64,000 nt of DNA from a virus. Its lineage: Duplodnaviria > Caudoviricetes. Shown piece after piece: positions 1,541 to 62,423 of the stretch. The stretch covers positions 369-64,368 of IMG/VR virus record IMGVR_UViG_3300032308_001355; one strand, 5' to 3'. The first letter of the stretch is position 1; each line of letters opens with the position of its first letter. The notes under the pieces are model-generated. The model worked only from the letters and a program-made list of their open reading frames with translations. It ran no database searches and had not been told where the DNA came from. The translations under genes and the position numbers were made by a program.

Positions 1541-1573
1541 AAGCGCATCATAGCAGCTCGTGAGAGCTCATTG

Positions 1574-1644
1574 CTCCCCACCGTGGATTCGAACCACGAT
1601 TCTTGGTGCCAAAAACCAATGTCCTGCCGTTGGACGAATGGGGA
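1574..1644 (-). tRNA. tRNA-Gln(UUG)
   Basis: acceptor TCCCCAT/GTGGGGA, anticodon stem TTGGT/ACCAA with loop TTTTGGC, T-loop GTTCGAATC; CCA not encoded. Confidence 0.93.
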
Positions 1645-8912: not shown

Positions 8913-8946
8913 AAACCAAAACCAAATGACGAGAAAGGTCAAACAG

Positions 8947-10374
8947 ATGTCCATAGCACTATTCGTAGAAAGTAACGCAGGTGAGTTAGATAACTTACCT
9001 GCAACCGCACAGACTTTATTATTCGCACACGATAACACTATTAAAACTTACCACCGTATTAGTAATGGTAGTAAGGGTAAGGGTCAAGTATGGAAGAGCG
9101 TTGATGATATTAGCGCGCTACCTATTAACCCTATCAACCGCGCACCCGTAGGTGTCTTGCTTACCGCGCGCGACCTAGCACTAGCCGACTTAGATAGTAT
9201 TACTAATATATCTATCAAGGCTATCTATGCTAGTGAGAACGCTGAGGCTATTGCAGAACCTATTGCTCACCGTGAAATGGTCGCTAATCTTACTTCGCGC
9301 CTTATCTATGGCGACCAAGCACTAGCAGATTATGTAACTGATAAGCGTAGTAGCACAGGCACAGCGCAAGGAATTGTTATTAACCCTATTAACGTAGAGG
9401 TTACTGAGCCTATTGCAGAGGTAACCAACACAAACGCCACCGTATCTGAGCCAGTAGTTACTAGCACTATTAAGTTGCCTGATATGGCGCTTAATATGAT
9501 TACAGTACCCGACCCTAAATGGGCTAAAGAATACGTTAATCGTCGTATTGCAGGGCGCACAGATTGGGATATTTATGACCAAGCACTAGCCGACGGAGAT
9601 AATATCCTTATCGAAGGTGGCGCAGGTAGTGGTAAGACTATTAGCGTTCAGAGTTATGCAAGTGCGCGTGGCTATCGTTACTTTAACGTATCAAATAATA
9701 ATGGTATTGACCCTTCACAGTTATTCGGTCGTTGGATACCTAAGTCAGACGGTCAGGGCTATATGTGGCAGGACGGCGCAGTAACTCTACTCGTTCGTCA
9801 TGGTGGAGTGTTGTTACTTAATGAAGTCAATTTCCTACCTGCTAGGGTTAGTACCGTACTCTTCTCACTTCTCGATTATCGTCGTGAGATACAGTTGCTA
9901 GAAAATGGTGGCGAAGTAGTTAAGGCGCACCCTAACTTACTAATCGTAGCCGATATGAACTATGGCTATAAAGGTACGCAAGAACTTAATCAAGCGTTCA
10001 GCGACCGCTTCAATATCAAGTTAGAGTTTCCTTATGACCGCACTATTGAAAATAAGGTTATTGGCTCTAAGGCTATCCTTAATCTTGCAGACCAGTTACG
10101 CGACCAGTACGACAAAGAAGAAATTAGTAGCCCTATCTCTACTCGTTCGTTAGTAAGCCTAGTAAAGAACGCACGTCGCTTCGGTACTGAGTTTGCTATC
10201 GGCTCGTTCGTAAATGGCTTCAACAAAGATGAACGCAACGGTGTTCGCCTTGCTTGTGAAACACACAAAGACAATATCGAACAGGACTTAGGATTAGCGC
10301 CTACAAAAGCGCACCCAGTATCGCCTGATGAAGTAGAACAGTACGCTAATTCTATCAACGCATGGGTTAAGTAA
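8947..10374 (+). CDS. MoxR/CbbQ/CobS-like AAA+ ATPase
   Basis: Walker A GGAGSGKT, Walker B variant LLLNEVN, MN.GY.GT.ELN.AF.DRF, STRSL; RBS GAGAAAGG. Confidence 0.9.
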   Translation: MSIALFVESNAGELDNLPATAQTLLFAHDNTIKTYHRISNGSKGKGQVWKSVDDISALPINPINRAPVGVLLTARDLALADLDSITNISIKAIYASENAEAIAEPIAHREMVANLTSRLIYGDQALADYVTDKRSSTGTAQGIVINPINVEVTEPIAEVTNTNATVSEPVVTSTIKLPDMALNMITVPDPKWAKEYVNRRIAGRTDWDIYDQALADGDNILIEGGAGSGKTISVQSYASARGYRYFNVSNNNGIDPSQLFGRWIPKSDGQGYMWQDGAVTLLVRHGGVLLLNEVNFLPARVSTVLFSLLDYRREIQLLENGGEVVKAHPNLLIVADMNYGYKGTQELNQAFSDRFNIKLEFPYDRTIENKVIGSKAILNLADQLRDQYDKEEISSPISTRSLVSLVKNARRFGTEFAIGSFVNGFNKDERNGVRLACETHKDNIEQDLGLAPTKAHPVSPDEVEQYANSINAWVK

Positions 10375-10376
10375 TC

Positions 10377-12296
10377 ATGCCACGTCCTCGTACTCACTAC
10401 TTAGATGAGGTTAGTAGTCTTATTACAGACTATCGTGTAGATGAAAACGGTAATTATGTAGCCATGAGCGCCGACGGCTTTACACGCACAGACCTTATAG
10501 AACAGGTTGCTGAGGAGAAGTCACGCTTAGACGGTATTAGTAGTGTGTATCAAACCGCAGATAGGATTATTAGTGGTGACGATATTAACGTTACCGTAGT
10601 GCGTAATCCTGAAATGGATACTACTGCTACTAATAATGGGCGTGAGATTATCTTCAACGCTAATCTTATTGAGGACTTAGATACCGATACTATCGTATCT
10701 ATGAACGGTACTAACTACCATGAACTAGCGCATATTCTATTCTCTCCACGCGCAGGTTCAGCACTAGGTCAGTATGTAACTAATAATAAGATGAAGCGCG
10801 CCTTCAATATGCTAGAGGAGTCGCGTATTGAAAAGATGTTAGTCGCTAAGTACCCTGCTACTCGTCTATTCCTAGAAGCAACCGTCCTAGACTATGCACT
10901 AAAAGATAGTCCTGATAAGTGGGGCGATATGTTTCCAGTTATTACAGGTCGTCGCTACTTAGATGTAGAACTACGGCAAATGATTGCTGATAAGTTTATT
11001 AACTCTTACGGCTCAGAGGTAGCACAGACAGTTAGTAGGATTGTTAATGAGTATGGCTCGTTGATATTCCCTACCGACTTTACGCGTGGTATGGAGTTAA
11101 TCGCTGAGTACTCGCAGTTAGTAGGATTAGATACTGAACCGCAAGGTCAGATACCTAACGGCAACGGTGACGGTCATAGTCATAATGAACGCAACGTATT
11201 ACAAAAGGGTCGCCCTGCTTCCACTAAAGAACAGGAACGCTTGCAGGGTAAGTCAGGTAGTGGAGAAGGCGAAAACCTTAACGGCGATAATGTTATCAAC
11301 GGTGAAAAAGGTAACGGTAATGGAACTACCCCTGCATGGGGCGTAGGTGGAGAAGGCATTGAATACACAGGTGAGCAAACGTCTTACACAAACTCTGATG
11401 AAGATATTGCTCGCGCACTAACGCAACGCCTAAAAGATATTCACGCTGATAGCCGTATTAAGAACGAAGTCCGTGAAGTCCGTAAGGCTATTACAGGTAA
11501 TGATGAGGTGCGCTCTACTCTAAAGAATAGTAAGCACTTTGACCTAGAAGTAAATACTAACGCTAGTAACTTTGCTCGTCGTTTCGGTGTGGAGTTAGAA
11601 CGCATGGTGCGTGATAGCGACCCTCATTGGGATAAGTTTCTACCTAGTGGTAAGTTAAATGTAAGTCGTACCATGACCCCTGATGTTAATGCTATTGGAC
11701 AGATGTTCGACGTATGGGATACAGGTAACGAAAACACAGACATAGAGGCAGTAATCCTATTAGATAACTCAGGCTCTATGTCGTACCACATGACCGAAGT
11801 ATGCGAGAAGGCATGGATTATTAAACGTGGTATTGAAAATATAGACGGTAGCGTTACCGTGTATAACTTCCATAGTTATAGCGAGTTGCTATACGACAAA
11901 AAGGAAAAGGCTAAGCCACGCCAGCACCGTAGCGTACACGCCACAGGCTCTACTAATCCTATGACGGCTCTAGTAGAGGCAGAACGCACACTAACTACTA
12001 CTGATAAGCATATTAAGATGTTGTTTATTGTTACCGACGGTGAGTGGGAGAACACAGAGGAGTGCGATAGTATTATTAAGCGCCTTAACGATAAGGGCGT
12101 ACTCACTTGTGTAGTATTCATGGGAGATTACAAGCAGGTGCATGAACTTATGGCTGAGGCTAAGCGTGGTAATGAACAAGCACGTCACTACCTACAACGC
12201 CTACGTCATAGTGCTAAGGTATTCAAGGCAGTTGCTAATCCTAAAGACGTGTTGGAGTTGGCAGTTGATATTGTTAAGAGTAAGGTAGGGAAGTAA
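10377..12296 (+). CDS. CobT-like VWA domain protein with N-terminal HExxH motif
   Basis: HELAH, FNMLEESRIE, SGKL, MIDAS DNSGS, TDG. Confidence 0.9.
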   Translation: MPRPRTHYLDEVSSLITDYRVDENGNYVAMSADGFTRTDLIEQVAEEKSRLDGISSVYQTADRIISGDDINVTVVRNPEMDTTATNNGREIIFNANLIEDLDTDTIVSMNGTNYHELAHILFSPRAGSALGQYVTNNKMKRAFNMLEESRIEKMLVAKYPATRLFLEATVLDYALKDSPDKWGDMFPVITGRRYLDVELRQMIADKFINSYGSEVAQTVSRIVNEYGSLIFPTDFTRGMELIAEYSQLVGLDTEPQGQIPNGNGDGHSHNERNVLQKGRPASTKEQERLQGKSGSGEGENLNGDNVINGEKGNGNGTTPAWGVGGEGIEYTGEQTSYTNSDEDIARALTQRLKDIHADSRIKNEVREVRKAITGNDEVRSTLKNSKHFDLEVNTNASNFARRFGVELERMVRDSDPHWDKFLPSGKLNVSRTMTPDVNAIGQMFDVWDTGNENTDIEAVILLDNSGSMSYHMTEVCEKAWIIKRGIENIDGSVTVYNFHSYSELLYDKKEKAKPRQHRSVHATGSTNPMTALVEAERTLTTTDKHIKMLFIVTDGEWENTEECDSIIKRLNDKGVLTCVVFMGDYKQVHELMAEAKRGNEQARHYLQRLRHSAKVFKAVANPKDVLELAVDIVKSKVGK

Positions 12297-14834: not shown

Positions 14835-16856
14835 TTATGGTTTTGGTACTTCACAGAAGTCCGTGGAGCAATACTTTTCACCAATAGCGTCCGCAGCCAT
14901 GCCAGCGTACACGTCAGTAAAGTCAATAGGAAGTAATTTGTACTTGTATCCTTCGTACTCTTCTTTAGTAATTTGAGTGTATGGCATTTGAGGATAGACA
15001 GCGTTGCCCATAGGTAGGAAAGAGACAGTCTTTAGTTGTCCGTCGAACATATGAAGAACAGTACCAACGTGGTCTTTCTCAGTCTCAGCATTAAAAGAGA
15101 CCGTTACTGATACTGAATTATCCGACCAATGACGTTGAGCCATAGAAGCAAGAGAGGTCTTTTCATAAATAGTTACGTCCTTTTCAGAACGGAGAGCCTC
15201 AGATTCAATAGGGAAATAAACTACCGAAGTTGTTTTTGGAGATTCACTTGCTGGTTCAACCGTGTATCCACTTGCAGTAAAGAGAGGTAGCATAGGGTCT
15301 TCATTACCGAAACGAATAGTGCGTAAGAAGAATTGACCGCCAGGAGTCCAATGTACCCCAGGAGATTCACCAGCCAAGATAGAAACAGTTCCCGAAGGTT
15401 TAACAGTTGTAGTCTTGATTGACTCACGGATACCAAGCCACTCTGAGTATGACTTATCGTATGCCTGTATTACTTCGTATCCCTTATCCATCCACTCACG
15501 TAGAGCAGGTAACCCTGCGCGGTCAGCGAAGTTAGCGATACCTGAGATAGAAGTACCAATGCGACGATTACGTTGCATGATTGCGTTAGTTTCTTCCCAA
15601 TGTGTAGGAAGAAGAGTAACGGTCTTAGCATAAAGATATGCAAACTTTAGTGTGCGCTTAAAGTCCTCTAGAGAGTCATGGCGATTCATATATGTCTCTA
15701 CGAGAGTACAACACTCAAAAGATTCAAGAGATTGTTCAGCGCAAGGGTTGTATCCCGCTGCGCGCCAGTCTTTGTTATTAGGAGCATCAATCAAACGACC
15801 ATACTTCCTAGTAACATCCATCCAAATGACCCCAGGTTCACCGTTGCGGGCAATACCGTCAATGATTCCAGAGAAGTCATCCCCAACCTTTACCTCAACA
15901 GAGTTGTTGGACATCCAAGCCCAGCCAGGATTCTTCGGGTCATAAGAGTTACGCTCAGGATATACTTCAGCGTTCTTTAAATTAAGGAAGTCTTTGTCAT
16001 CCAAACGACCCATCAAGAGCTCAGCCGAACGACGGACATTTCCACTTACAACACAAACTCCAATTAAGTTACCAATATCTGCAATATCTTTACGAGTTAG
16101 TTTCTCACCAGCTCGATTGCTGAAGATTGCACGCACATAGTTGTGTAACTTCTCTAGCGGCTCATGTCCTGCAGCGGTTCCGCCAAAGGTTTTAATAGGA
16201 GTTCCAGCAGGACGGATGAGCGAGTAGTCAAACTCGCAGATATTCTGTTCAGACTTCAGGTAGGAGTTAATAAGTAATGAAGTTGATTCAACCCAACCCT
16301 CACGTGTATCAGGGATTACTGTGGTTACAGCAGGTAGTTTAGGCTCATAGATTGTGAAGTCTTTGTCCGCACCTTTGTCATCAAAGCCAACGCCTACGCC
16401 TAACATGCTTGCTTCCATGAGGAAGGCAAATGGTTTGGCTGGGTTAATCTTGGTCATAGACTCAGTAGAAACAAAAGAACAGTTTTGAAGAGCGGCTGAG
16501 TTGCGTTGCTCATTGACCAGAGGGGTACCCATTACCCATAGTCCGCGCCCTGGCGGAGTCCACTTTAAATTAAAAAGGCGGTCATAGGCTTCTTTAGCAG
16601 AAGCCTGGGCTTTAGCATCATTCCAAGGAAGGCGGTTTAATTTAGCGTGGTCTTTTTGTAGGGAGTACATGCCATTGATAACACGCTCGCATACTTCAAC
16701 CCAAGTCTCTTTAGTGCCGTCCTCTTTAAGACGAGAATAGGTGCGCAAGAAAGTAATCTCACCTACTGCATTTCCGCCAGCATCCACATAGCCCCATGGG
16801 ACTTTCTTGGATTTATATCCAGCGACAAAATCGTCCGCAAGATGGAATGACAACAT
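14835..16856 (-). CDS. nrdJ: class II (adenosylcobalamin-dependent) ribonucleotide reductase
   Basis: PPGRGLW, NPCAEQ, TTVKPSGTVS, C-terminal CxxxxC. Confidence 0.93.
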   Translation of the reverse strand: MLSFHLADDFVAGYKSKKVPWGYVDAGGNAVGEITFLRTYSRLKEDGTKETWVEVCERVINGMYSLQKDHAKLNRLPWNDAKAQASAKEAYDRLFNLKWTPPGRGLWVMGTPLVNEQRNSAALQNCSFVSTESMTKINPAKPFAFLMEASMLGVGVGFDDKGADKDFTIYEPKLPAVTTVIPDTREGWVESTSLLINSYLKSEQNICEFDYSLIRPAGTPIKTFGGTAAGHEPLEKLHNYVRAIFSNRAGEKLTRKDIADIGNLIGVCVVSGNVRRSAELLMGRLDDKDFLNLKNAEVYPERNSYDPKNPGWAWMSNNSVEVKVGDDFSGIIDGIARNGEPGVIWMDVTRKYGRLIDAPNNKDWRAAGYNPCAEQSLESFECCTLVETYMNRHDSLEDFKRTLKFAYLYAKTVTLLPTHWEETNAIMQRNRRIGTSISGIANFADRAGLPALREWMDKGYEVIQAYDKSYSEWLGIRESIKTTTVKPSGTVSILAGESPGVHWTPGGQFFLRTIRFGNEDPMLPLFTASGYTVEPASESPKTTSVVYFPIESEALRSEKDVTIYEKTSLASMAQRHWSDNSVSVTVSFNAETEKDHVGTVLHMFDGQLKTVSFLPMGNAVYPQMPYTQITKEEYEGYKYKLLPIDFTDVYAGMAADAIGEKYCSTDFCEVPKP

Positions 16857-16923: not shown

Positions 16924-18384
16924 TTACTTATCTTCTAAAGATTGTTTGATAATTTGGGTGGTTTCAGATTCGTTCAATCCGCCTTCTGGCAGTTCCCGAA
17001 GTACCTGAGCCTTATCACCAAAGATAGAGGATAGCACGCCAGCCGAGCCTTGGCGCTCTACAGTCATGCGAATAAACTCACGTGAGTCGTCCAATTCTTT
17101 GGTGGTTTTAATAAGTTTAAATAGTCGGTCAATCTCTTGAGAAACGTTTGGGTCTGCGTATCCACCGTTCATTTCTTCGCTAAAACGCATAAAAGCAACG
17201 CGTTGTCCTTGCATTTCAATGACTGCGTTAATCAAAGACTTTAGTTGGTCTTTGGTCTTAATGCTAACTGGTAACTTAAAAGCGCATGTACTTGATGGTT
17301 TAAAAGCAGGACAGTTAGAAGCTACAAAGCATGTATCGCACGCTCGAAGTGAGACATCCTGTGAGGTAAGTGTAGTCACATCTTTGATAGTTCCATCGTC
17401 TTCTACAATGGTCTCTAACTCGTAACCGAAGACAGGTAAATTGCCCATTTCCTCTGGCTTACGGGGTTCAAGTTTGCGTACCTGAGTACCCTTATTATCA
17501 ATATGGGAAGGGGTAGTTTCCCCATTTTGCTCCACTTCGCTCCCCCCGCTATTATCATATAAGAAGTCGTCGTTATTCATTCCATTTAACCTCGCTTCGT
17601 ACTGCAAGTAAGACCAGACTGCCAAACGACAGACTTCCTTAGAGTCATCTTCTAATATCTTATCTACATCTAACCTAGCCTTTGTATATACGTTTCTGTA
17701 TCTAGTGCGGGCTTGGTCTTTCATTCGTTTGGGGTATCGCTTGATTTGAGTACCGTCCCAGACAATAGTTTCGCCATTCATCATGGGAGACAACCAAGCC
17801 ATAGTGCTGGCGGTTTCTGCAGATACTTGACGTAAATTGTCGGGTTTAGCGGAGCCTAGCACATGAAACCGTGTACCGTGCTTGCGGTTAATAGTCCTAG
17901 TGACCATAGCAAGTTGAACTTCTGTTTCTAAAGATTCCCCAGAAATACCAATGTCCAGATAGTCTTCAGCCATTCGATGAAGACCAGCGTAGCCCGTGGT
18001 GGGCTCCCAAACGGGTAAAAACTTACCAGGTGGTACTTGAGACCAGGCTGTTCGTCGTTGTTGTAGTACAAACTCTTGGTCTATGCGTGGCCCTGAGATT
18101 TCACTGAAGACATTAATCCTATCAACGTTGTTTGCTATAAATCCTTCATACTCAGCGGCAAAATCCTCAAGCTCTTCAGCTGTTAATTCCGTGTCTTTTG
18201 GTATGCCTGGGTATACATAAATATAAAATGAGTCTTTAAAGTAGTTCTTTAATAAATAATCGCTTTTCTTTGGAAGCCCTCGTTGTTTCAGCCGCCAGAA
18301 GCTAACACCTACGTGGGTTGCCCCTGTGGTTTCTAATAAAGTACGATTTGAGGGAACCTCTGCTCCCAACATTACAAGTTTCAT
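16924..18384 (-). CDS. TGT/TIM-barrel-like domain fused to Cys-rich metal-binding and helical C-terminal domains
   Basis: FHVLG...ASTMAW resembles the TGT-like H..G...D/S..W motif; CDTC-x5-C-x8-C. Confidence 0.45.
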   Translation of the reverse strand: MKLVMLGAEVPSNRTLLETTGATHVGVSFWRLKQRGLPKKSDYLLKNYFKDSFYIYVYPGIPKDTELTAEELEDFAAEYEGFIANNVDRINVFSEISGPRIDQEFVLQQRRTAWSQVPPGKFLPVWEPTTGYAGLHRMAEDYLDIGISGESLETEVQLAMVTRTINRKHGTRFHVLGSAKPDNLRQVSAETASTMAWLSPMMNGETIVWDGTQIKRYPKRMKDQARTRYRNVYTKARLDVDKILEDDSKEVCRLAVWSYLQYEARLNGMNNDDFLYDNSGGSEVEQNGETTPSHIDNKGTQVRKLEPRKPEEMGNLPVFGYELETIVEDDGTIKDVTTLTSQDVSLRACDTCFVASNCPAFKPSSTCAFKLPVSIKTKDQLKSLINAVIEMQGQRVAFMRFSEEMNGGYADPNVSQEIDRLFKLIKTTKELDDSREFIRMTVERQGSAGVLSSIFGDKAQVLRELPEGGLNESETTQIIKQSLEDK

Positions 18385-18839
18385 TGAACTCGGTGGTCTT
18401 CTACGTATAGTTCTTGTTGGCGCGTAATCTCATTTTCTATATCTGCCCAACTTTTACGACCCTCACGGCTATCTGGACGAAACTTTTCACTTATATAAAG
18501 GGGTTGTAAAAACATTAAGGTTGTAATACCAGATTCCAATAACTTAGCAGATAGCTTTGGGTCGGATGTAACTACATAATCTACGGGGCCTCTGCCTCTG
18601 CAATACTCTACCTGTCGCCATTCAAGCCAATCAATACTTAAAGGTATATCTTCCCCAACCAAATCATCTACTAAATTAATTTTATTTTCTTTAAGCCATC
18701 TGTCATCCCGTGCTTTATGTGAACATATAAGTATTACTTGTGTAGTTTCTTTTAAGGTACGGTAAAGGGCAAACCCTTGCCTATTAGGTGAGCCTGTGTG
18801 TGAGCGTAAAACGCCGTCTACAAACATTAAAATTGCCAC
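18381..18839 (-). CDS. HAD-fold protein (degenerate motif I)
   Basis: ILMFVDGVL (first Asp missing), W.....I pattern. Confidence 0.6.
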   Translation of the reverse strand: MAILMFVDGVLRSHTGSPNRQGFALYRTLKETTQVILICSHKARDDRWLKENKINLVDDLVGEDIPLSIDWLEWRQVEYCRGRGPVDYVVTSDPKLSAKLLESGITTLMFLQPLYISEKFRPDSREGRKSWADIENEITRQQELYVEDHRVQ

Positions 18840-18861
18840 GTGTTAGTTCTCCAACTACTAA

Positions 18862-19794
18862 TTAATTCTTGGCGCCGAGTGCCCTTCGGACTAGGGTATT
18901 AACATCAGGAAGTTCCATACCATAAGTTTGAGTCTCAAACTCTTTGCGTCCTTTAGCGGCAATATCCTTTAACTTACGCAAGGCTTGAATCGTACCAGCG
19001 GCTTTACCAGATTGCCAACGGTGATTGTAAATATCCATATAACCTTGCCCACTGGGACTAAACGCATAACTTCTTCCATGGTGAATTTCATCAAATAATG
19101 CGGCGCCTTGCTCAATCGCAAGCTTTAAGGCAGCTTCAGCGTTTCTGCGCGCCGTATCTGTAGTCGCGCTCCCTATGGATGTGAGCGCTGCTGAGTATCT
19201 TGACAAAATCTCTGTTGTCATAGATGTATCTTTAGCAACTCTGTCATCCCATGCTCTATTTTGAGGTGGGGCCTTGACTTCTGGCTGTACTGTCCAATCA
19301 TCATTAGTTAACGAATACGCGGCGTATGGTTTAATAGAACGAATATCTGTTTTAACATTTACAAAAAAAGTTAATTCGTAAGCTTCAAGGAAGTTATTAG
19401 TAACTGGATGTAACATTTCTCTAAAATCGGCGTTAAACATATCAGCAATTTGTTTATCACTTAAAGCTTTGTATTCTGGATTAGTTTGCCTAAACGTTAG
19501 GTAGTTAATTCCAATTAAACAATCCAAATCAGCTGGGTTACGAGCAGCTGTCCACTGATAGCTTATAGCTGAGCCAGCTAACCAAACGTGTGTGTATGCC
19601 TCTGGGTTATAGTAATGATTCTTTAAATGTTCAAATAAAATGCGCAAAATTGAAGAACGAACGTGAGGTACAAGTTTTCCGCTTCTAAATAAACGTGGGT
19701 CTAGCCCAGCCCCAGGAGCGCTAAAATATGACGTTTCAGAGGGCTCTATTGCTACTGGTGTAGCCTGCGCCACCAATGAAGAATAGATGTCCAT
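18862..19794 (-). CDS. Pol-beta superfamily nucleotidyltransferase
   Basis: LAGS-x12-DLD plus downstream YELTFFVN acidic strand. Confidence 0.8.
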   Translation of the reverse strand: MDIYSSLVAQATPVAIEPSETSYFSAPGAGLDPRLFRSGKLVPHVRSSILRILFEHLKNHYYNPEAYTHVWLAGSAISYQWTAARNPADLDCLIGINYLTFRQTNPEYKALSDKQIADMFNADFREMLHPVTNNFLEAYELTFFVNVKTDIRSIKPYAAYSLTNDDWTVQPEVKAPPQNRAWDDRVAKDTSMTTEILSRYSAALTSIGSATTDTARRNAEAALKLAIEQGAALFDEIHHGRSYAFSPSGQGYMDIYNHRWQSGKAAGTIQALRKLKDIAAKGRKEFETQTYGMELPDVNTLVRRALGAKN

Positions 19795-19823
19795 TTAACT
19801 ATTATAGCCTTTACCAGGCATCC

Positions 19824-20390
19824 TTAGTTGTATAGACCCTTCTTCTTAAATGCCTTTTCTTGAACTTTACTCTTTACAGGGCAATAATCACATAAGTACA
19901 CTTTTGGCCCACGGCTTTCTTTTTCCAAACCAGCAGCCATTCGTTCTTTAGCTGTGTCAGGAACTAGGAGCTTTTTATCTGTTTTGTAATCGCCGCAGTC
20001 TGTGGTTTGGTTATGTTCTTTAATCCAACATGACATAGCATCTGCTGTAAAGTTATTTTTAGTATCGTAAAAATTAGTGCCAAATACGTCTAAGCCCTGT
20101 GCGCCTTCTTTTAATTGAGCTAAAATTCCTTCTTTAACTTTAGGAATAATCCAAAAACGTGTAGGAAACTTAATAGTAATAAAATCATCACGGACACAGC
20201 CTTTACGCACGTGCTGGTCTGTGAAGAACTTTTGGGTTAGGTCAAACTCCATGGTGTTTTCACCACCCTCTGGGCCCTCATAATCAGGAACCTCTTCAAT
20301 TGAACGGCATTTAATGCACTTTAGGACGCGCATATGCGGTTCGTTAGGGTTTACCTCTGCGGTTTTAAGTTGAGCTAAGTCGTATACCAT
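19824..20390 (-). CDS. multi-Cys zinc-binding protein
   Basis: CIKC, H...C, C...H...C, CDYC. Confidence 0.75.
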   Translation of the reverse strand: MVYDLAQLKTAEVNPNEPHMRVLKCIKCRSIEEVPDYEGPEGGENTMEFDLTQKFFTDQHVRKGCVRDDFITIKFPTRFWIIPKVKEGILAQLKEGAQGLDVFGTNFYDTKNNFTADAMSCWIKEHNQTTDCGDYKTDKKLLVPDTAKERMAAGLEKESRGPKVYLCDYCPVKSKVQEKAFKKKGLYN

Positions 20391-20408: not shown

Positions 20409-20894
20409 TTATTTCTTTTTGTTTTCAGCCAATCGTTTTCGAGCAGCAGCCATTTTTGCTTCATTAGAAGCTAAAGCAACAGCACGGGCTTGAGCACCAC
20501 CTGCGGTACCTGCAACTGGTGACGGAACTGCTGTTTTCTTTGGAGCCGCCTTTTTTGTTTTTGTAGTGGCTTCTTGTTTAGGAAATGAAAAATACCCACC
20601 AGAATGAAGCATCATGCCTTTGTTGGAATCATCTTTAGATGTAAGCAAACCGACATGTTCTTTATTATTTTTATCAAATTTAGTCATTTCACGTGGACCA
20701 AGCTCTTCCGCGTTGTACTCCTCAACACGAGGGCGTCCGCCACCAAAATCCCATTTACCTGTTCCAGGGCGTGTATCTCCACGAGATGGTAATGAAACTG
20801 ATGCGATGTTCTTTTTGCCCTCTAAGCTTTTATAAATAGCTTCAGTATTAATTTGTGGTGTACGAGCGGGGTTGTTAGCACGGTCATCAGCCAT
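20409..20894 (-). CDS. disordered Lys/Ala-rich protein, MAxDR N-terminus
   Basis: start moved to MADDRAN; KKAAPKK tail. Confidence 0.7.
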   Translation of the reverse strand: MADDRANNPARTPQINTEAIYKSLEGKKNIASVSLPSRGDTRPGTGKWDFGGGRPRVEEYNAEELGPREMTKFDKNNKEHVGLLTSKDDSNKGMMLHSGGYFSFPKQEATTKTKKAAPKKTAVPSPVAGTAGGAQARAVALASNEAKMAAARKRLAENKKK

Positions 20895-21057
20895 TAGATG
20901 TTTTCCTATCTTCTGCATCCATAGCATCTAATTCTGCTTGATGTGGGTCTGGTCGTTCACGCATTTCAATAATGTCTGCGCCAAACTTACCTTCCATACG
21001 TTCTTGTCGTTCAAGGTTAGGTACTCGGCGTGAGTCGTATGCGCGGTCTTCAGCCAT
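20887..21057 (-). CDS. charged microprotein, MAxDR N-terminus (56 aa, not in ORF track)
   Basis: MAEDRAYDSRRVPNLERQ...; 8-nt overlaps on both sides. Confidence 0.7.
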   Translation of the reverse strand: MAEDRAYDSRRVPNLERQERMEGKFGADIIEMRERPDPHQAELDAMDAEDRKTSNG

Positions 21058-21346
21058 TTAATTTATACTCATTTTCGTCATAAGCCTGTTTAACATGTCC
21101 GCCACCAACATTATAAACTTCGTTTCTATCTTTTCTAAAATCCCCATCGTGTTTTTTATTAATAGAAGAATTATCATGTGGGCGTCCTTCTTTAACAGCG
21201 TTTTGAGGGAATGACTGACCCGAGTTCATTTGAAGGTTGTCTGCCCAAGCAGAGCTTTCTCGCTTCCAACCTAAAGCATCACCCATTTTACTTAAAGCAC
21301 TGGTGTCAATAGTACGCTTTGAGTCGCGTGAGCGGTCTTTAGCCAT
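21050..21346 (-). CDS. disordered protein, MAxDR N-terminus
   Basis: MAKDRSRDSKRT... Confidence 0.7.
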   Translation of the reverse strand: MAKDRSRDSKRTIDTSALSKMGDALGWKRESSAWADNLQMNSGQSFPQNAVKEGRPHDNSSINKKHDGDFRKDRNEVYNVGGGHVKQAYDENEYKLNG

Positions 21347-21348
21347 AA

Positions 21349-21558
21349 TTAGTTGCCTAGTGGATTAACTTGTGATGTCTCTTCTGAGTTAATAAATCCG
21401 TAGTTCATGTATGGATGTAAACCTGCTCGGTTTTTAACAACTAGTTCGTCACCCATCGCAGGTGCAACTGTTGTATTAGGACGACGCTTACGGTATTTAC
21501 CGTCTGTTGCGCCCATTTCAAGTGCAGTGTTTTCAGACATTGCTTTGCGAACGGTCAT
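21349..21558 (-). CDS. hypothetical protein
   Basis: GATDGKYRKRRP; ATGA overlap. Confidence 0.7.
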   Translation of the reverse strand: MTVRKAMSENTALEMGATDGKYRKRRPNTTVAPAMGDELVVKNRAGLHPYMNYGFINSEETSQVNPLGN

Positions 21559-21785
21559 GCCATTCGTCCTTTCACTAAGGAGTAGTTTTTCCTGCGTTGG
21601 CAAGAAGTGCACATCTCGTTAAGTAATGATTGTACTGGGTCAATACGTCGTCCACAGCCTTTGCACGCTGTGTCTCCATTATAAATGGTCTGTCCTAGCT
21701 CTTTTTGAGTGCTAAGGGCAACGTCCTCAGCCCCAGCCATACCTTCGCCAGTGCTATCTGTAAATAAACCTGGGTCATTGCTCAT
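21555..21785 (-). CDS. zinc-ribbon protein
   Basis: CKGC...CTSC. Confidence 0.7.
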   Translation of the reverse strand: MSNDPGLFTDSTGEGMAGAEDVALSTQKELGQTIYNGDTACKGCGRRIDPVQSLLNEMCTSCQRRKNYSLVKGRMA

Positions 21786-22147
21786 ATTGTAGGTCCTAAC
21801 GAGTTAGTGCTTGTAGATTGTTGAGTATTAGGTGTTTGGCTAAAGTCGGACTCAACGCGTTGGGTAGTAGCAACACGACGTGGCATATTGACTAAATCTT
21901 CAATGCCAATCTCATCTTCACTATATCCATAACGTGCTGGGAATAACTGTATCTGTGGGAGTGGTGGACGAACATATTCTTGAATCTCTGATGCGCTCAT
22001 GCTCCAAGCAGCTAGTGATTGGCTTAACAGCCGCTCTTGATTGCTAGCAAAAGGCCCTACATATTCCTGTGGTGGATATGCAGGTTCTACTAATGGCGCT
22101 ACCCATGGGCGGCGATTATAAACTCCGTCTGCAAACTTACCTGCCAT
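21782..22147 (-). CDS. Pro/Gln-rich hypothetical protein
   Basis: tightly packed in operon. Confidence 0.7.
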   Translation of the reverse strand: MAGKFADGVYNRRPWVAPLVEPAYPPQEYVGPFASNQERLLSQSLAAWSMSASEIQEYVRPPLPQIQLFPARYGYSEDEIGIEDLVNMPRRVATTQRVESDFSQTPNTQQSTSTNSLGPTI

Positions 22148-22148
22148 A

Positions 22149-22688
22149 TTACTTCCAACCTGGGCGCATACGAGCCATTTGGTCTACGCGTCGTTTGTCT
22201 AATGACATAGGTGAAGTACTACGCATATTAGCCTTACCATCATTTGGTAGGTGAGGTGCTGGAGCAGCCATTGCGTTTTCTACACCACGGGGTACGCGGT
22301 ATACGTTTCCATCTTTAACTGCTTTCATTTGACGTGCAATACCACGTGTATTTTCTAAACCTGCTGGGTAGTAATAATCTTGTACATCAATGCGCTCACC
22401 ACGGTGAACACCTCGTTGATATGAACGTTGACCTACTCTTACTTTTAAACCGTCTAATACACGGTCTGCTACTCCAGATGAACGCCCTCTATCATCTCTA
22501 CGTGAACGAATAGTTCCAAGATACCCATCTGGGTACTCTGCTTGTGGCGCGCGACCTACACCAAGACGAAGAAAATCAAGTTCACTACGAGCAACTGGAA
22601 CACCACCACCACCGTAAACGGTGTTGGTCCCATACATACCAGCTGCGCCCAGATTCTGAACGTTTTGATGTGGTTGTGGATTAGCCAT
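22149..22688 (-). CDS. Arg/Gly-rich hypothetical protein (possible virion protein)
   Basis: YPDGYLGTIRSRRDDR, YQRGVHRGERID. Confidence 0.75.
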   Translation of the reverse strand: MANPQPHQNVQNLGAAGMYGTNTVYGGGGVPVARSELDFLRLGVGRAPQAEYPDGYLGTIRSRRDDRGRSSGVADRVLDGLKVRVGQRSYQRGVHRGERIDVQDYYYPAGLENTRGIARQMKAVKDGNVYRVPRGVENAMAAPAPHLPNDGKANMRSTSPMSLDKRRVDQMARMRPGWK

Positions 22689-24225: not shown

Positions 24226-24801
24226 CTAGGCGTACTGAGTGTATATGCGAGTCTCTCCGCCCGAGTTTGTATCAAATTCTTTTGCGGCGTTTACTGCACT
24301 GGTCATAGCTTTTGCAGCCAAATCTATATCTTTAAATATCTTAGAACCAGCAGCATACAAAGCACCTTGGGCAAAATCCCCACCACTTCCTGTAGCAAAG
24401 TAATTTCGAGCGTCTCGGTCTAGTGAGTAATCCTCATCAATTATGTATAGGGTCCCCTGAACTGCAACAAGAAATACGTTTTCAAACTGGGCATAATCCC
24501 CATCGTCTTTCATATCGTAACCACCATCAATAAAAACTTGACGCATTCCAGGAATAAAAGTGTTTATCATCCAAGCATCTAATTGGTCGGGTGTGCTATT
24601 AACACGGGGCTTTGGTGCTTTCCAACCACGTTGCAAAAGGTTCATACCCCGACCAATACCGCAACCAGCAATTAAAATACCATTATTGTCTACGACCTTA
24701 TGGTCTTTCATAAATACATTTCGGTATTCATTATAAGTGCCTTGTGAATCAGCGCCCATTACTACCCAACCATCACCTTGAATAGCTGCGATTGTGGTCA
24801 T
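24226..24801 (-). CDS. proteasome beta-subunit/HslV-like Ntn protease
   Basis: N-terminal MTT, ADS, KV, GSGG, D..SGG. Confidence 0.9.
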   Translation of the reverse strand: MTTIAAIQGDGWVVMGADSQGTYNEYRNVFMKDHKVVDNNGILIAGCGIGRGMNLLQRGWKAPKPRVNSTPDQLDAWMINTFIPGMRQVFIDGGYDMKDDGDYAQFENVFLVAVQGTLYIIDEDYSLDRDARNYFATGSGGDFAQGALYAAGSKIFKDIDLAAKAMTSAVNAAKEFDTNSGGETRIYTQYA

Positions 24802-57866: not shown

Positions 57867-59135
57867 CTAGTGTAAAGTTAAATCCTGAGAAAAACACTCC
57901 TTATTACGAGAAGCAAGGGCTGGGTTTACCCATACCTGGTCTTCCATTTTGTTTCCCCATTCGTGAGAGGTATCTACCAACACAAACCCATTGCCGTTCA
58001 TAAACTCAACAATCTTATCTGTTGGCATGTGGTCGGGGTGAAGTGACTCCCTCTCAGTCTCTATATGAAAGAGCTTTACATCTTTAAGGCGCTCCCCAAA
58101 GCTGTGTAGTACTTGCCAGCTATGCCCCTCTGTATCAATCTTAATTACATCAATAATGCCTTCAATGTCTTTAAGCAGTGTATCCATACGAGTTGAGGGG
58201 ACCTTTATTGCCTCAACCTTTCCTTCATAAAAAGAAGCAGGTGGGTCAATAGACGTGTCTTTGCTCATAATAGAAGATGTACCCAATACCTCAATATTAT
58301 CTGTTTTAACTTGGTTAAATAAAACCTCACCGTCGGTATCAGACACTGCTGTGTGCCTAATGTCCATCCACGGGTATCGCCCTTTAACAATGTTAATACA
58401 TACTGGGCTTGCATCAATAGCTACTACTTTTTGCCCGTATAGCTCTTTGTAAAGGTAGTTGGCGTCATCACCGTCACGAGTACCTACATCAATAATATTT
58501 GTAGCCTTAGTGCCAAAGTACTTACGGTAATTAGATACAACAGTTTCTAGTGGGTTTACATAACTAGGTGTATCGTCAACTGTGTTTAAGTTGTTATGAA
58601 TAGCTGAACGGTACACCTGATTTATATCTTCTTTTAATAGTTCTTTGAATATATTAATCGCTTCATCTTTTCGCCCTACCCACCAACCACTTACGGCTTT
58701 TTCAAATCGCAACCCATATTCACCTGGATAATCAACCCACACTGGTAAGGGACCAGACTTAAGTTTTCCAAAAGACAATCCTACTTCAGCGGCTGTGTAG
58801 GATTCTTGCCACTTTTGATTACGCTCGTACCAACGAGCTAAAAGAAACCAAGCCTCTGGTCTAGAAGGGATGTAAGCAATAGCTTTTAAGTAAAGATTAA
58901 CTACAGTATTCTCTCTATTTTTTTGGCTACTAAAACAGTGCGCAGATTTTAAAAGAGATGCGTACACATGCTCAGGGTGTGAGTAGTACCCATACTCTGC
59001 TGTACGAAGGTAGAAAGACACAGCAGATGCGGTCTGCCCAATATTTTCGTACTCAATAGCAATTTGTAAGCTAAGAGTGGGGTTAAACGGGTCGTTAGAT
59101 AATGAAACTATTAGGCTGTTTATACGGTTATACAT
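57867..59135 (-). CDS. TPR domain fused to FkbM-family methyltransferase
   Basis: TPR helices (P.RPEA); IIDVG...G, AVSD..G, IKIDTEG. Confidence 0.85.
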   Translation of the reverse strand: MYNRINSLIVSLSNDPFNPTLSLQIAIEYENIGQTASAVSFYLRTAEYGYYSHPEHVYASLLKSAHCFSSQKNRENTVVNLYLKAIAYIPSRPEAWFLLARWYERNQKWQESYTAAEVGLSFGKLKSGPLPVWVDYPGEYGLRFEKAVSGWWVGRKDEAINIFKELLKEDINQVYRSAIHNNLNTVDDTPSYVNPLETVVSNYRKYFGTKATNIIDVGTRDGDDANYLYKELYGQKVVAIDASPVCINIVKGRYPWMDIRHTAVSDTDGEVLFNQVKTDNIEVLGTSSIMSKDTSIDPPASFYEGKVEAIKVPSTRMDTLLKDIEGIIDVIKIDTEGHSWQVLHSFGERLKDVKLFHIETERESLHPDHMPTDKIVEFMNGNGFVLVDTSHEWGNKMEDQVWVNPALASRNKECFSQDLTLH

Positions 59136-60126
59136 TGATAGCCTCCGCAATTAAAGTATCTACTAGGTCTCCAGGAACCTCTAAAACAAATGCTGCGTTA
59201 TCTTGGAACCCAAAGCTAATAAGTAGTTTGCCGTCATACTCAGCGGCGCCCGCGCAAAACTCAATCTGACCATCTAGGAAAGACCAAGACTCCTTAGATA
59301 AACCTATAAGTTCAAAGTCTTCATTCCATACACATAAACGATGGCGGTATGTACCGTTTTTTTGCTTAAGGTAGTTCTTAAACAAAACTACCTCATGAGT
59401 AATAGCAATGTAGTACTCGCCCCATTTAATTACTTGAGAGCCTCCGCGTTGGTCAGCGTTAGCCCACTTACCTTCTTTAACAGAGACCTGTTTGCATTTA
59501 GGCTCATTAGGGTCAGCCTCTACAACCTCTGTGGGGACGGTCCACTTAATGTATTGGAACTTCCTATTTAAGATAGGCATCCAATTCTTCTCACAGTAGG
59601 AGTTTTCATCAATAGGCGCTGGTACTCGGACTCTAGATACTTCTTTAGCTGTCCACTTGTCTTTGTCTATTTCAAGCTTAGACAGCTCCATGCGACCCTG
59701 CCCATTAGTCGTAGTATCTCGGCGCACACCAGTGCCATAGTACTCACCGTCCCACTTAACTAAGCGCGCATCCTCTAGCCCAACAAAAGTCCAAATAGGT
59801 TTAACATCTAAGGTAGAGGTATCAATAGAGCAGTAGTTAATAATGTTTAGGTCTTTGTCAAGGCGAAGAAGATAGTTGTCTGTTACTAGGCGCTGGTCCT
59901 CTTCTGGGTGCAGGTATGACAAGGGGCCCCAGATGCTAGGAAATCTTTGATTATTTTCCGCATGGTATAGAGTGTAGTTAATGTGGCGTAGGATACAAAG
60001 AATATCCCCATCTTCATCTATAAAGATGGATGGGTTCATTAGACCAGTACCGCCAGTTATAGTAGAAGGGATTATAAGTGGTCTTAATTTGCCACCCGCT
60101 ATTACCGATTTTTGCACCAAATTCAT
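59128..60126 (-). CDS. five-bladed beta-propeller glycosidase/phosphorylase-like (GH130-like)
   Basis: NPSI, GLEDARL, EKNWMP, RGGS, IEFCAG, SFG.QD. Confidence 0.8.
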   Translation of the reverse strand: MNLVQKSVIAGGKLRPLIIPSTITGGTGLMNPSIFIDEDGDILCILRHINYTLYHAENNQRFPSIWGPLSYLHPEEDQRLVTDNYLLRLDKDLNIINYCSIDTSTLDVKPIWTFVGLEDARLVKWDGEYYGTGVRRDTTTNGQGRMELSKLEIDKDKWTAKEVSRVRVPAPIDENSYCEKNWMPILNRKFQYIKWTVPTEVVEADPNEPKCKQVSVKEGKWANADQRGGSQVIKWGEYYIAITHEVVLFKNYLKQKNGTYRHRLCVWNEDFELIGLSKESWSFLDGQIEFCAGAAEYDGKLLISFGFQDNAAFVLEVPGDLVDTLIAEAINV

Positions 60127-61526: not shown

Positions 61527-62423
61527 ATGACAGAACGTCTTATGCCTAAAGGTGGCTCTGACATAATGTTAGATGGCTTAAAGCGCCACGTTAATTTAGA
61601 CGGAATCAACATTATTCAATCAGTATGTAGGGAAAACCTTATTGATTTAGATAAAAAAAACATATTGTGGCAGCACCTTCCTGCAGACCAACTATATGTT
61701 CAAGGCATAAGAGATAAATATTTTCAGCGACAACTAGATGCAACAGTTATGGTATCTAATTGGCAACATGAGCGCTATCGCCTTATGCATCAAATACCCT
61801 TAAATAATGTATTTGTTATAAAAAATGCAATTGAGCCTATAGAGTTTATTCCACGTTCAAATGATAAAGTAAAGGTTATTTACGCATCTGCCCCTTATAG
61901 AGGATTAGATGTTATGTTAGCCGCTTTTGAATACTTAAATAGAGATGATGTAGAACTAGACGTTTACTCCTCTACTATTATCTATGGTTCTGATTATGTA
62001 GAGTATGAAGGTGATAAGTATGAGCCTTTATTTCAAAAAGCCCGAGAATTAAAGAACGTTAGCTATAAAGGCTATGCTCCTCACGATAATCTTATTAAAG
62101 CACTACAAAACGCAGATATCCTTGCTTATCCCTGCACTTTTGAAGAGACATCTTGTCTAACCGCTATTGAGGGTTTAGCCGCAGGTTGTCAAGTAATAAC
62201 TACAAATATTGGCGCGCTACCAGAGACGGGTTCAGAGTTCTCTACACTTGTTCCTATTCAGTCTACTTACGCCGATATAGTTATGTCTTTTGCAGCATCA
62301 CTTAACACTTTAATTGATAACGCTAAAAATTTTGATGGCAGGTACCAATCAGAGTTTTACAACAAGATGTATGGTTGGGAAAAACGCACTAAAGAATGGA
62401 ATGATTTGCTTAATAGGATTTAA
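61527..62423 (+). CDS. GT-B (GT4-like) glycosyltransferase
   Basis: GGS, VS.WQ, I.NAI, PYRGLD, YP..FEETSC...EGLAAG. Confidence 0.9.
   Translation: MTERLMPKGGSDIMLDGLKRHVNLDGINIIQSVCRENLIDLDKKNILWQHLPADQLYVQGIRDKYFQRQLDATVMVSNWQHERYRLMHQIPLNNVFVIKNAIEPIEFIPRSNDKVKVIYASAPYRGLDVMLAAFEYLNRDDVELDVYSSTIIYGSDYVEYEGDKYEPLFQKARELKNVSYKGYAPHDNLIKALQNADILAYPCTFEETSCLTAIEGLAAGCQVITTNIGALPETGSEFSTLVPIQSTYADIVMSFAASLNTLIDNAKNFDGRYQSEFYNKMYGWEKRTKEWNDLLNRI

Follow-up and report, generated by a model that had tools for sequence, protein, structure and literature searches.

Within a 64,000-nucleotide stretch of the genome of a lake-type phage of the Caudoviricetes (IMG/VR record IMGVR_UViG_3300032308_001355, positions 369–64,368; hereafter the window), a 486-residue protein, g486 (16924–18384, minus strand), is encoded last in a run of four genes. 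We find that this protein has the predicted barrel of the phage DNA guanine transglycosylase DpdA, and that the residues needed for base exchange have been replaced. Our tentative reading is that g486 is a non-catalytic, DNA-recognising derivative of DpdA that works with two obligate partners, the products of the neighbouring genes g152 and g188; we infer both the DNA binding and the partnership from sequence comparison.

We built an AlphaFold2 model of g486 on an alignment of 95 diverse family members (alignment A1). The mean predicted local distance difference test (pLDDT) score of the model is 83.0, with values of 95–98 over residues 1–270. Superposition with VIA-align matched residues 1–278 of the model (17551–18384, minus strand) to the archaeosine tRNA-guanine transglycosylase (TGT) ArcTGT (1iq8_A; Z 17.0, root-mean-square deviation (rmsd) 3.5, 252 residues aligned) and to the bacterial DNA preQ0 insertase DpdA (7ui4; Z 16.8, rmsd 3.4, 259 residues aligned). 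Foldseek also ranked a TGT first (7a9e, E 6.4e-6) among 168 matches at E ≤ 0.001. At the sequence level, hhalign aligned the A1 profile with six phage DpdA1 proteins (from 9g, Iggy, VpKK5, Sonali, phiFN37 and Vid5) with a probability of 99.0% and E 2.3e-18 over 230 columns, and g486 matched PHROG 887, annotated “queuine tRNA-ribosyltransferase”, at E 3.3e-52. Searches of PDB sequences with g486 alone or with profiles A1, A3 and A5 gave no meaningful match, and Pfam and NCBIfam returned no match for g486 or for the other three genes of the run. By homology and by its model, g486 is a true relative of DpdA with a TGT-type (beta/alpha)8 barrel, and the TGT fold that the initial annotation of this DNA had proposed tentatively is borne out.

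What remains of the active site? Bacterial DpdA uses D95 as the acid/base, D130 for base recognition and D256 as the nucleophile; all three are reported to be invariant across DpdA and TGT, and guanine exchange is abolished in D95A and D256A mutants (PMC10164549). The phage DpdA1 proteins have the positions of the LDSG, HG and SSSW motifs in common with g486, and within them D72, H196-G197 and D215 are invariant. At the corresponding family positions the window protein differs as follows: (i) Y at position 58, where DpdA1 has D72 of LDSGAF; (ii) S at position ~97, the Asp of the DpdA1 VLD motif, a register that is approximate because hhalign shifts the base-recognition Asp by one column; (iii) H-V at positions 174–175, in place of H196-G197; and (iv) S at position 193, in place of the nucleophile D215 of CDSSSW. 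The usual Asp reported as apparently missing in the initial annotation is indeed replaced (S193), and the loss extends further (Y58, S97).

These replacements are not peculiar to one sequence. The nucleophile position 193 carries Asp in 0/134 unique homologues from viral loci, and in a single member (1/95) of alignment A1. We divided the 134 homologues into the window clade (65 sequences, at least 55% identical) and 69 distant sequences resembling that of Streptomyces phage BRock. No member of the window clade has D58 (0/65; H in 35, Y in 20, N in 6, S in 3 and I in 1) and 13/65 have D97; despite these losses, g486 stays conserved in the clade at 57–91% identity. W197 and four Cys of the C-terminal region are invariant in both groups, and E9, E95, H174, D247 and E250 are near-invariant, which indicates continued selection on g486. 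As judged by alignment, the whole family has lost the nucleophile Asp, and the window clade has in addition lost the acid/base Asp and, in most members, the base-recognition Asp. The literature searched, within a search of limited reach, yielded no account of the residue loss or of this gene set; the listing of the BRock homologue as a singleton DpdA is already in print.

A source for a modified base was also looked for. QueC was not found in the 64.4 kb record, and QueC, PTPS/QueD and FolE (QueE was not searched) were not found in five complete relatives, a search in which control genomes scored positive; the initial annotation had noted that the window has no 7-deazaguanine synthesis genes. 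Known phage DpdAs differ from g486 in this respect. DpdA1 proteins adjoin FolE, QueD or QueC and, unlike g486, are ~270–320 residues long and have no C-terminal Cys4 and helical region. Closer in architecture is the long-form DpdA of Bacillus phage BCD7 (gp021, 757 residues, YP_007005872), which resembles g486 in both its barrel (21% identity, 4e-6) and its tail (27%, 4e-13), with ~270 extra residues between the two domains. Bacteroides phage BS162P1 encodes a split pair, BS162P1_00087 and BS162P1_00088, that matches both g486 domains, and gp021, the split pair and g486 all belong to PHROG 887. The BCD7 gene directly follows FolE, QueC, QueE and QueD, and BS162P1_00086 is QueC-like, whereas no Que genes were found in the g486 lineage. 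These relatives beside Que genes, gp021 and BS162P1_00087, retain the nucleophile Asp (GDSTTW and VDSVTW, respectively), which is Ser in g486.

The four genes lie in the order g188 (19824–20390), g310 (18862–19794), g152 (18381–18839) and g486, all on the minus strand, as the initial annotation had described them, and all four are conserved. The stop codon of g152 and the start codon of g486 overlap as ATGA, in keeping with the translational coupling that it had claimed. These genes are far beyond chance open reading frames (ORFs), as judged from family searches that recovered 789 representatives (at 50% identity, E ≤ 1e-3) for g486 and 1583 matches for g310. We gathered related viral loci with a 12-sequence alignment and counted 126 of them after dropping those that duplicated a g486 protein and those with less than 6 kb of upstream sequence; a related-locus search with the distant member P0198 gave no relative. 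At these loci g486 is accompanied by g152 in 126/126, by g188 upstream in 125/126 and by g310 in 110/126. Where g310 had no local copy (16/126 loci), the five complete genomes available had none anywhere (5/5), and the three positive controls scored 1e-114 or better (3/3). Thus g310 is dispensable and the core of the module consists of g188, g152 and g486. The initial annotation had read the four genes as a nucleotide-modification or signalling module, an interpretation that is not supported: g486 is devoid of the residues for base exchange, and these loci and genomes do without the nucleotidyltransferase. In the g310-less genomes, the interval from the g188 homologue to the g152 homologue holds an ORF of 113–132 residues that the g310 profile does not match (L097:5992–6390, L108:5995–6360, L110:6139–6480 and L130:6005–6397).

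The genes also co-occur in other phages, including BRock, in which g188, g310, g152 and g486 have homologues in gp42, gp39, gp38 and gp36, with order and strand preserved (34% identity, 3e-23; 34%, 1e-59; 29%, 3e-20; and 32%, respectively). The BRock block contains extra genes (gp41, the amidase-like gp40 and gp37) and has no adjoining ribonucleotide reductase (RNR); gp37 was considered as a relative of g188 and ruled out, with no relationship found. BRock gp36 is also without the nucleophile Asp, yet keeps D58, D97, H127 and G175. Because BRock is broadly collinear with the window, we take the conservation of the module to be inherited within a single broad lineage and do not count it as independent support for linkage. 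Homologues of g486 also occur inside large actinobacterial contigs of 0.11–7.7 Mb (Terracoccus, Nonomuraea, Streptomyces and Actinomadura), which points to Actinobacteria as hosts and suggests that some members of this ~100 kb lineage are integrated or were co-assembled with host DNA (L169–L176, in contigs of 0.14–7.7 Mb).

The nucleotidyltransferase g310 (310 residues, with a C-terminal helical bundle) has an intact set of catalytic residues. G74, S75, D89 and D91 of the D89-L-D91 motif, and E140 are invariant in 55 sequences of 31–92% identity, in agreement with the intact GS/DxD of a Pol-beta nucleotidyltransferase reported in the initial annotation. In an AlphaFold2 model (pLDDT 90.2), VIA-align matched residues 32–166 to minimal nucleotidyltransferases (1ylq_B, Z 6.6, rmsd 3.2, 89 residues aligned; 1no5_B, Z 6.5) and the remainder to generic helical bundles. 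Foldseek gave no match at E ≤ 0.001; the best matches have a nucleotidyltransferase fold at E 0.03–0.3 (MiD51, AAD(9), CdnE/CdnD and CCA-adding enzymes), the CdnE/CdnD chains at E 0.04–0.2 with rmsd above 16. In the Atlas, PF01909 is found on 12% of one cluster of g310 look-alikes. Going by its motifs, g310 would be a Pol-beta-type enzyme with an intact catalytic site that belongs to no family described so far.

The pairing of a TGT fold with a Pol-beta fold is also known from the type IV cyclic oligonucleotide-based antiphage signalling system (CBASS), in which Cap10 (PDB 9NTN; Foldseek rank 8 with g486, E 2.9e-5) stands beside a cGAS/DncV-like nucleotidyltransferase (CD-NTase). Cap10 is reported to keep its catalytic D248 and to have no Zn site (10.1101/2025.04.06.647259), and it needs the QueC-like Cap9, whereas QueC was not found in the phage lineage; g310 matches CD-NTases at Foldseek E ≥ 0.04 only. 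We set this pairing aside because Cap10 retains the Asp and needs Cap9.

The two core partners are less readily classified. The small alpha/beta protein g152 (152 residues), which may be HAD-like or DUF188-like, begins MAILMFVDGVL, and its family has the motif hhh(D/E)G(V/I)L. The residue that would be the HAD nucleophile, two before this Asp, is F, L, I, V, Y, A, T or P in all 39 members (39/39), and D or E stands at +2 in 38/39; the initial annotation had noted the replacement in the window protein. Pfam matched DUF188 (PF02639) in 10/39 members, with a best E of 0.0055 that is below the cut-off, and Hydrolase_6, a HAD family, in 1/39 (E 0.061). With hhalign, g152 aligned to E. coli YaiI at a probability of 24% over 31 columns only, and its profile found no HAD match among PDB sequences. 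Among 61 genomes sampled from the class to which one prophage host belongs, none had DUF188, and a search for NT5C in five host genomes gave one unrelated match. The first gene of the module encodes the Cys/His-rich g188 (188 residues), which matches no Pfam, PHROG or NCBIfam family. In its 33-member family C25, C121, C132, C167 and C170 never vary, and conservation is 90% or more at C28, H60 and H126, a pattern that fits one or two Zn sites; g188 is a probable Zn-binding protein.

Beyond the barrel, g486 continues through a predicted disordered linker of ~40 residues (residues 279–318, 17431–17550; pLDDT below 50 over 280–310 and 312–319 within the span 280–319) into a beta-hairpin, a Cys4 motif and long helices (residues 319–486 and stop, 16924–17430, all minus strand). 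The motif, C349-x2-C352-x5-C358-x8-C367 (17284–17340), is the CxxC-x5-C-x8-C followed by a helical tail that the initial annotation had pointed out, and all four Cys are invariant (95/95). In tblastn searches the tail alone matched the C-termini of the BCD7 protein (4e-8) and of the BS162P1 pair (BS162P1_00088, 4e-10). The tails of the window, BCD7 and BS162P1 proteins all match, weakly, the same region of phrog_6902, “terminase small subunit” (~positions 280–389; E 0.015, 0.028 and 0.09 for 3/3 tails). At a relaxed threshold tblastn returned 62 Gordonia and 6 Tsukamurella phage records covering ~80% of the tail at E 0.1–3. Among them the SteveFrench, Woes and Chelms proteins, of 465–468 residues, are annotated as small terminases; their genes extend past the start of the gene for the large terminase (TerL), and a portal gene follows. 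With hhalign, the tail family aligned to these three proteins over 110 columns that take in the Cys motif (probability 87.7%, E 3.4e-6; CDSCSLWRLCPAYRTEEVCG vs CDTCFVASNCPAFKPSSTCA). The proteins at the small terminase (TerS) position in Gordonia, Tsukamurella and Rhodococcus phages (SteveFrench gp8, Woes gp6, Chelms gp9 and Jumbo gp6) share with g486 a CDSC-x5-CP-x8-C motif followed by helices and a similar length (465–535 residues), and this family occupies the same position in 117 phage records; its function is known by annotation only. A structural search of BFVD with Foldseek matched the “terminase small subunit” of Gordonia phage Jumbo across 554 columns (E 2.0e-7), although the TM score is 0.30 and the rmsd 25.6. 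Together, the phrog_6902, tblastn, hhalign and Jumbo matches back the guess, made from the window sequence alone, that the tail is small-terminase-like. In the Atlas, clusters labelled T5_Terminase_small (PF26823) scored 0.77, which is under the Atlas's own chance level.

The loss of the catalytic residues, together with a tail resembling that of proteins in the small terminase position, suggests that g486 probably binds DNA rather than modifying it. It would descend from a phage DpdA, having lost base exchange and retained barrel and tail, and may recognise DNA without catalysis alongside the translationally coupled g152 and g188 as obligate partners; the intact nucleotidyltransferase g310 would be an accessory that the module can do without. 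Its tail hints that g486 may serve in recognising DNA or in passing it on for packaging. Several observations weigh against this reading: (i) the BRock-like group keeps the guanine pocket (D58 in 65/69, D97 in 69/69 and H174 in 65/69, with H127 in 60/69 and G175 in 66/69), which would also fit a residual or altered enzyme; (ii) the near-invariant acidic residues E9 and E95 could substitute as catalytic groups; (iii) the g486 gene sits among replication and nucleotide-metabolism genes, and in a complete relative, G001, the homologue (~35.4 kb) is ~30 kb from TerL (~65.2 kb); and (iv) the true DpdA of BCD7 carries the same tail, which is thus not specific to packaging.

An alternative that we consider unlikely is that g486 has kept enzymatic activity but changed its chemistry, serving as a hydrolytic DNA glycosylase or as a modifier of bases or nucleotides that uses E9, E95 or D239 instead of the lost Asp, on a substrate that might be made or activated by g310; this would amount to the modification module first proposed. 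In alignment A1, E9 is acidic in 94/95 sequences and E95 in 88/95, and D239 is Asp in 84/95; the BRock-like proteins keep D58, D97, H127 and H174-G175, and g310 has intact catalytic residues and is present in 110/126 loci. In the window clade, though, D58 is gone from all 65 sequences and D97 from most, and the protein is maintained at 57–91% identity all the same, while g310 is absent throughout the five complete genomes that have no copy of it at the locus. The literature examined offers no active TGT-fold enzyme without the nucleophile Asp, and Cap10 keeps D248 (10.1101/2025.04.06.647259).

Could g486 itself be the small terminase, or packaging-site recognition subunit, its barrel reading DNA and its Cys4 and helical tail coupling to TerL? 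We regard this as distinctly unlikely. The tail alignment to the SteveFrench, Woes and Chelms proteins encoded at the start of TerL, the constant position of their family, the Jumbo match and the agreement of 3/3 tails on phrog_6902 all argue for it. So does the lack of a recognisable TerS near TerL: no PHROG or Pfam small terminase was found upstream of TerL in G001, and none is annotated between 9 and 112 kb in BRock. Small unassigned ORFs do occur upstream of TerL in G001, however, and the Gordonia-type genes lie immediately upstream of TerL, whereas g486 does not: its homologues lie ~30 kb from TerL in G001 and ~72 kb away in BRock (16 kb vs 88.5 kb), inside the replication block. The N-terminal halves of g486 and the Gordonia-type proteins have no significant sequence similarity (hhalign probability 1.4%), only the tail aligns by sequence to the Jumbo protein (probability 25%) and the Jumbo superposition is poor. 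The Gordonia “small terminase” is moreover an annotation only, and BCD7 has this tail on a true DpdA. A bolder version, to which we give little credence, would make g486 the missing small terminase of BRock-type actinophages, with a base-flipping barrel that reads the packaging site and with g152 and g188 as subunits of the complex; the tail of the BCD7 protein would then anchor base exchange at the packaging motor, and DNA would be modified in the course of packaging. Upstream of TerL in both G001 and BRock lies a gene for a KTSC-domain protein (PF13619; L178:11995–12582 and L185:18069–18494, minus strand; E 4.8e-10 and 2.2e-16).

It is improbable that g486 acts on tRNA as a pseudo-TGT resembling QTRT2, with g310 serving in tRNA repair or protection. 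The TGT fold is common to tRNA enzymes, QTRT2 is a known non-catalytic paralogue (10.1101/2025.04.06.647259), and BRock has 29 tRNA genes, RNA ligases and a polynucleotide kinase. The closest relatives of g486 in sequence are nevertheless the DNA-acting DpdA1 proteins and the BCD7 DpdA, its tail is common to proteins in the DNA-packaging position, and the sole tRNA gene of the window, a tRNA-Gln (anticodon ttg; 1573–1644, minus strand), is far from the module.

Least probable of all is a functional DpdA that would put preQ0 or a similar base of host origin into phage DNA, as the PHROG 887 match, the true homology to DpdA1 and the listing of the BRock homologue as a singleton DpdA (that of BCD7 being listed as a DpdA with Que genes; Hutinet et al. 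2019, PMC6884629, Supplementary Data file 7) might suggest, since the nucleophile Asp is found in 0/134 homologues and the window protein is also without the acid/base and base-recognition Asp, mutation of either catalytic Asp abolishes DpdA activity (PMC10164549), and the same 2019 paper allows that singleton DpdAs may have diverged in function.

The record itself is a 64.4 kb viral contig rated 68% complete, most of which is covered by the window; its complete relatives measure 95.8–100.2 kb. Baseplate, sheath and tube genes, together with a replication block, identify the source virus as a myovirus, and a megablast search of 10 kb against phages gave no match. The gene that follows g486 encodes a class II RNR (14835–16856; Pfam RNR_Alpha 3.5e-29, RNR-II_ins_dom 9e-12), an adjoining position seen only in the clade of the window, and the coding strand has no terminator-like site from 14.5 to 21.5 kb. 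Immediately upstream of the module (20409–22688, minus strand) lies a run of small basic low-complexity ORFs of 172, 56, 98, 87, 76, 121 and 179 residues without family matches, of which the 179-residue ORF is 65–89% conserved in relatives and the 172-residue ORF is found at 1/82 loci. Further upstream, within the replication and recombination block, is a gene for a 191-residue HslV/proteasome-like peptidase (24226–24801, minus strand; Pfam Proteasome 5.3e-6, phrog_1040 4.5e-26). On the plus strand, the gene for a CobS-like AAA ATPase (phrog_249 “porphyrin biosynthesis”, 2.5e-44) precedes that for a 639-residue protein (8926–12296), and the two may form a CobS/CobT-like pair. Near the tail genes we found a methyltransferase-like protein (57867–59150, minus strand; phrog_8156, 4.3e-13) and a glycosyltransferase-like protein (61527–62423, plus strand; phrog_2170, 2.1e-36).

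What does a DpdA without its catalytic residues mean for these phages? In phages, the presence of DpdA is taken to signal 7-deazaguanine modification of the DNA (PMC10516641), and the 789 representatives of the g486 family are labelled “queuine tRNA-ribosyltransferase” or “DpdA-like”, which would be a mis-annotation. Because the residues for the reaction are gone and no source of the base was found, a prediction of DNA modification or restriction resistance based on these labels would be wrong for the lineage, which comprises actinophage-type myoviruses of ~90–116 kb that are abundant in lakes and soils. The link to the terminase can be tested in the cultured phage BRock. The g486 family would also provide a clean example of a viral enzyme that has turned into a probable binding protein while keeping two fixed partners.

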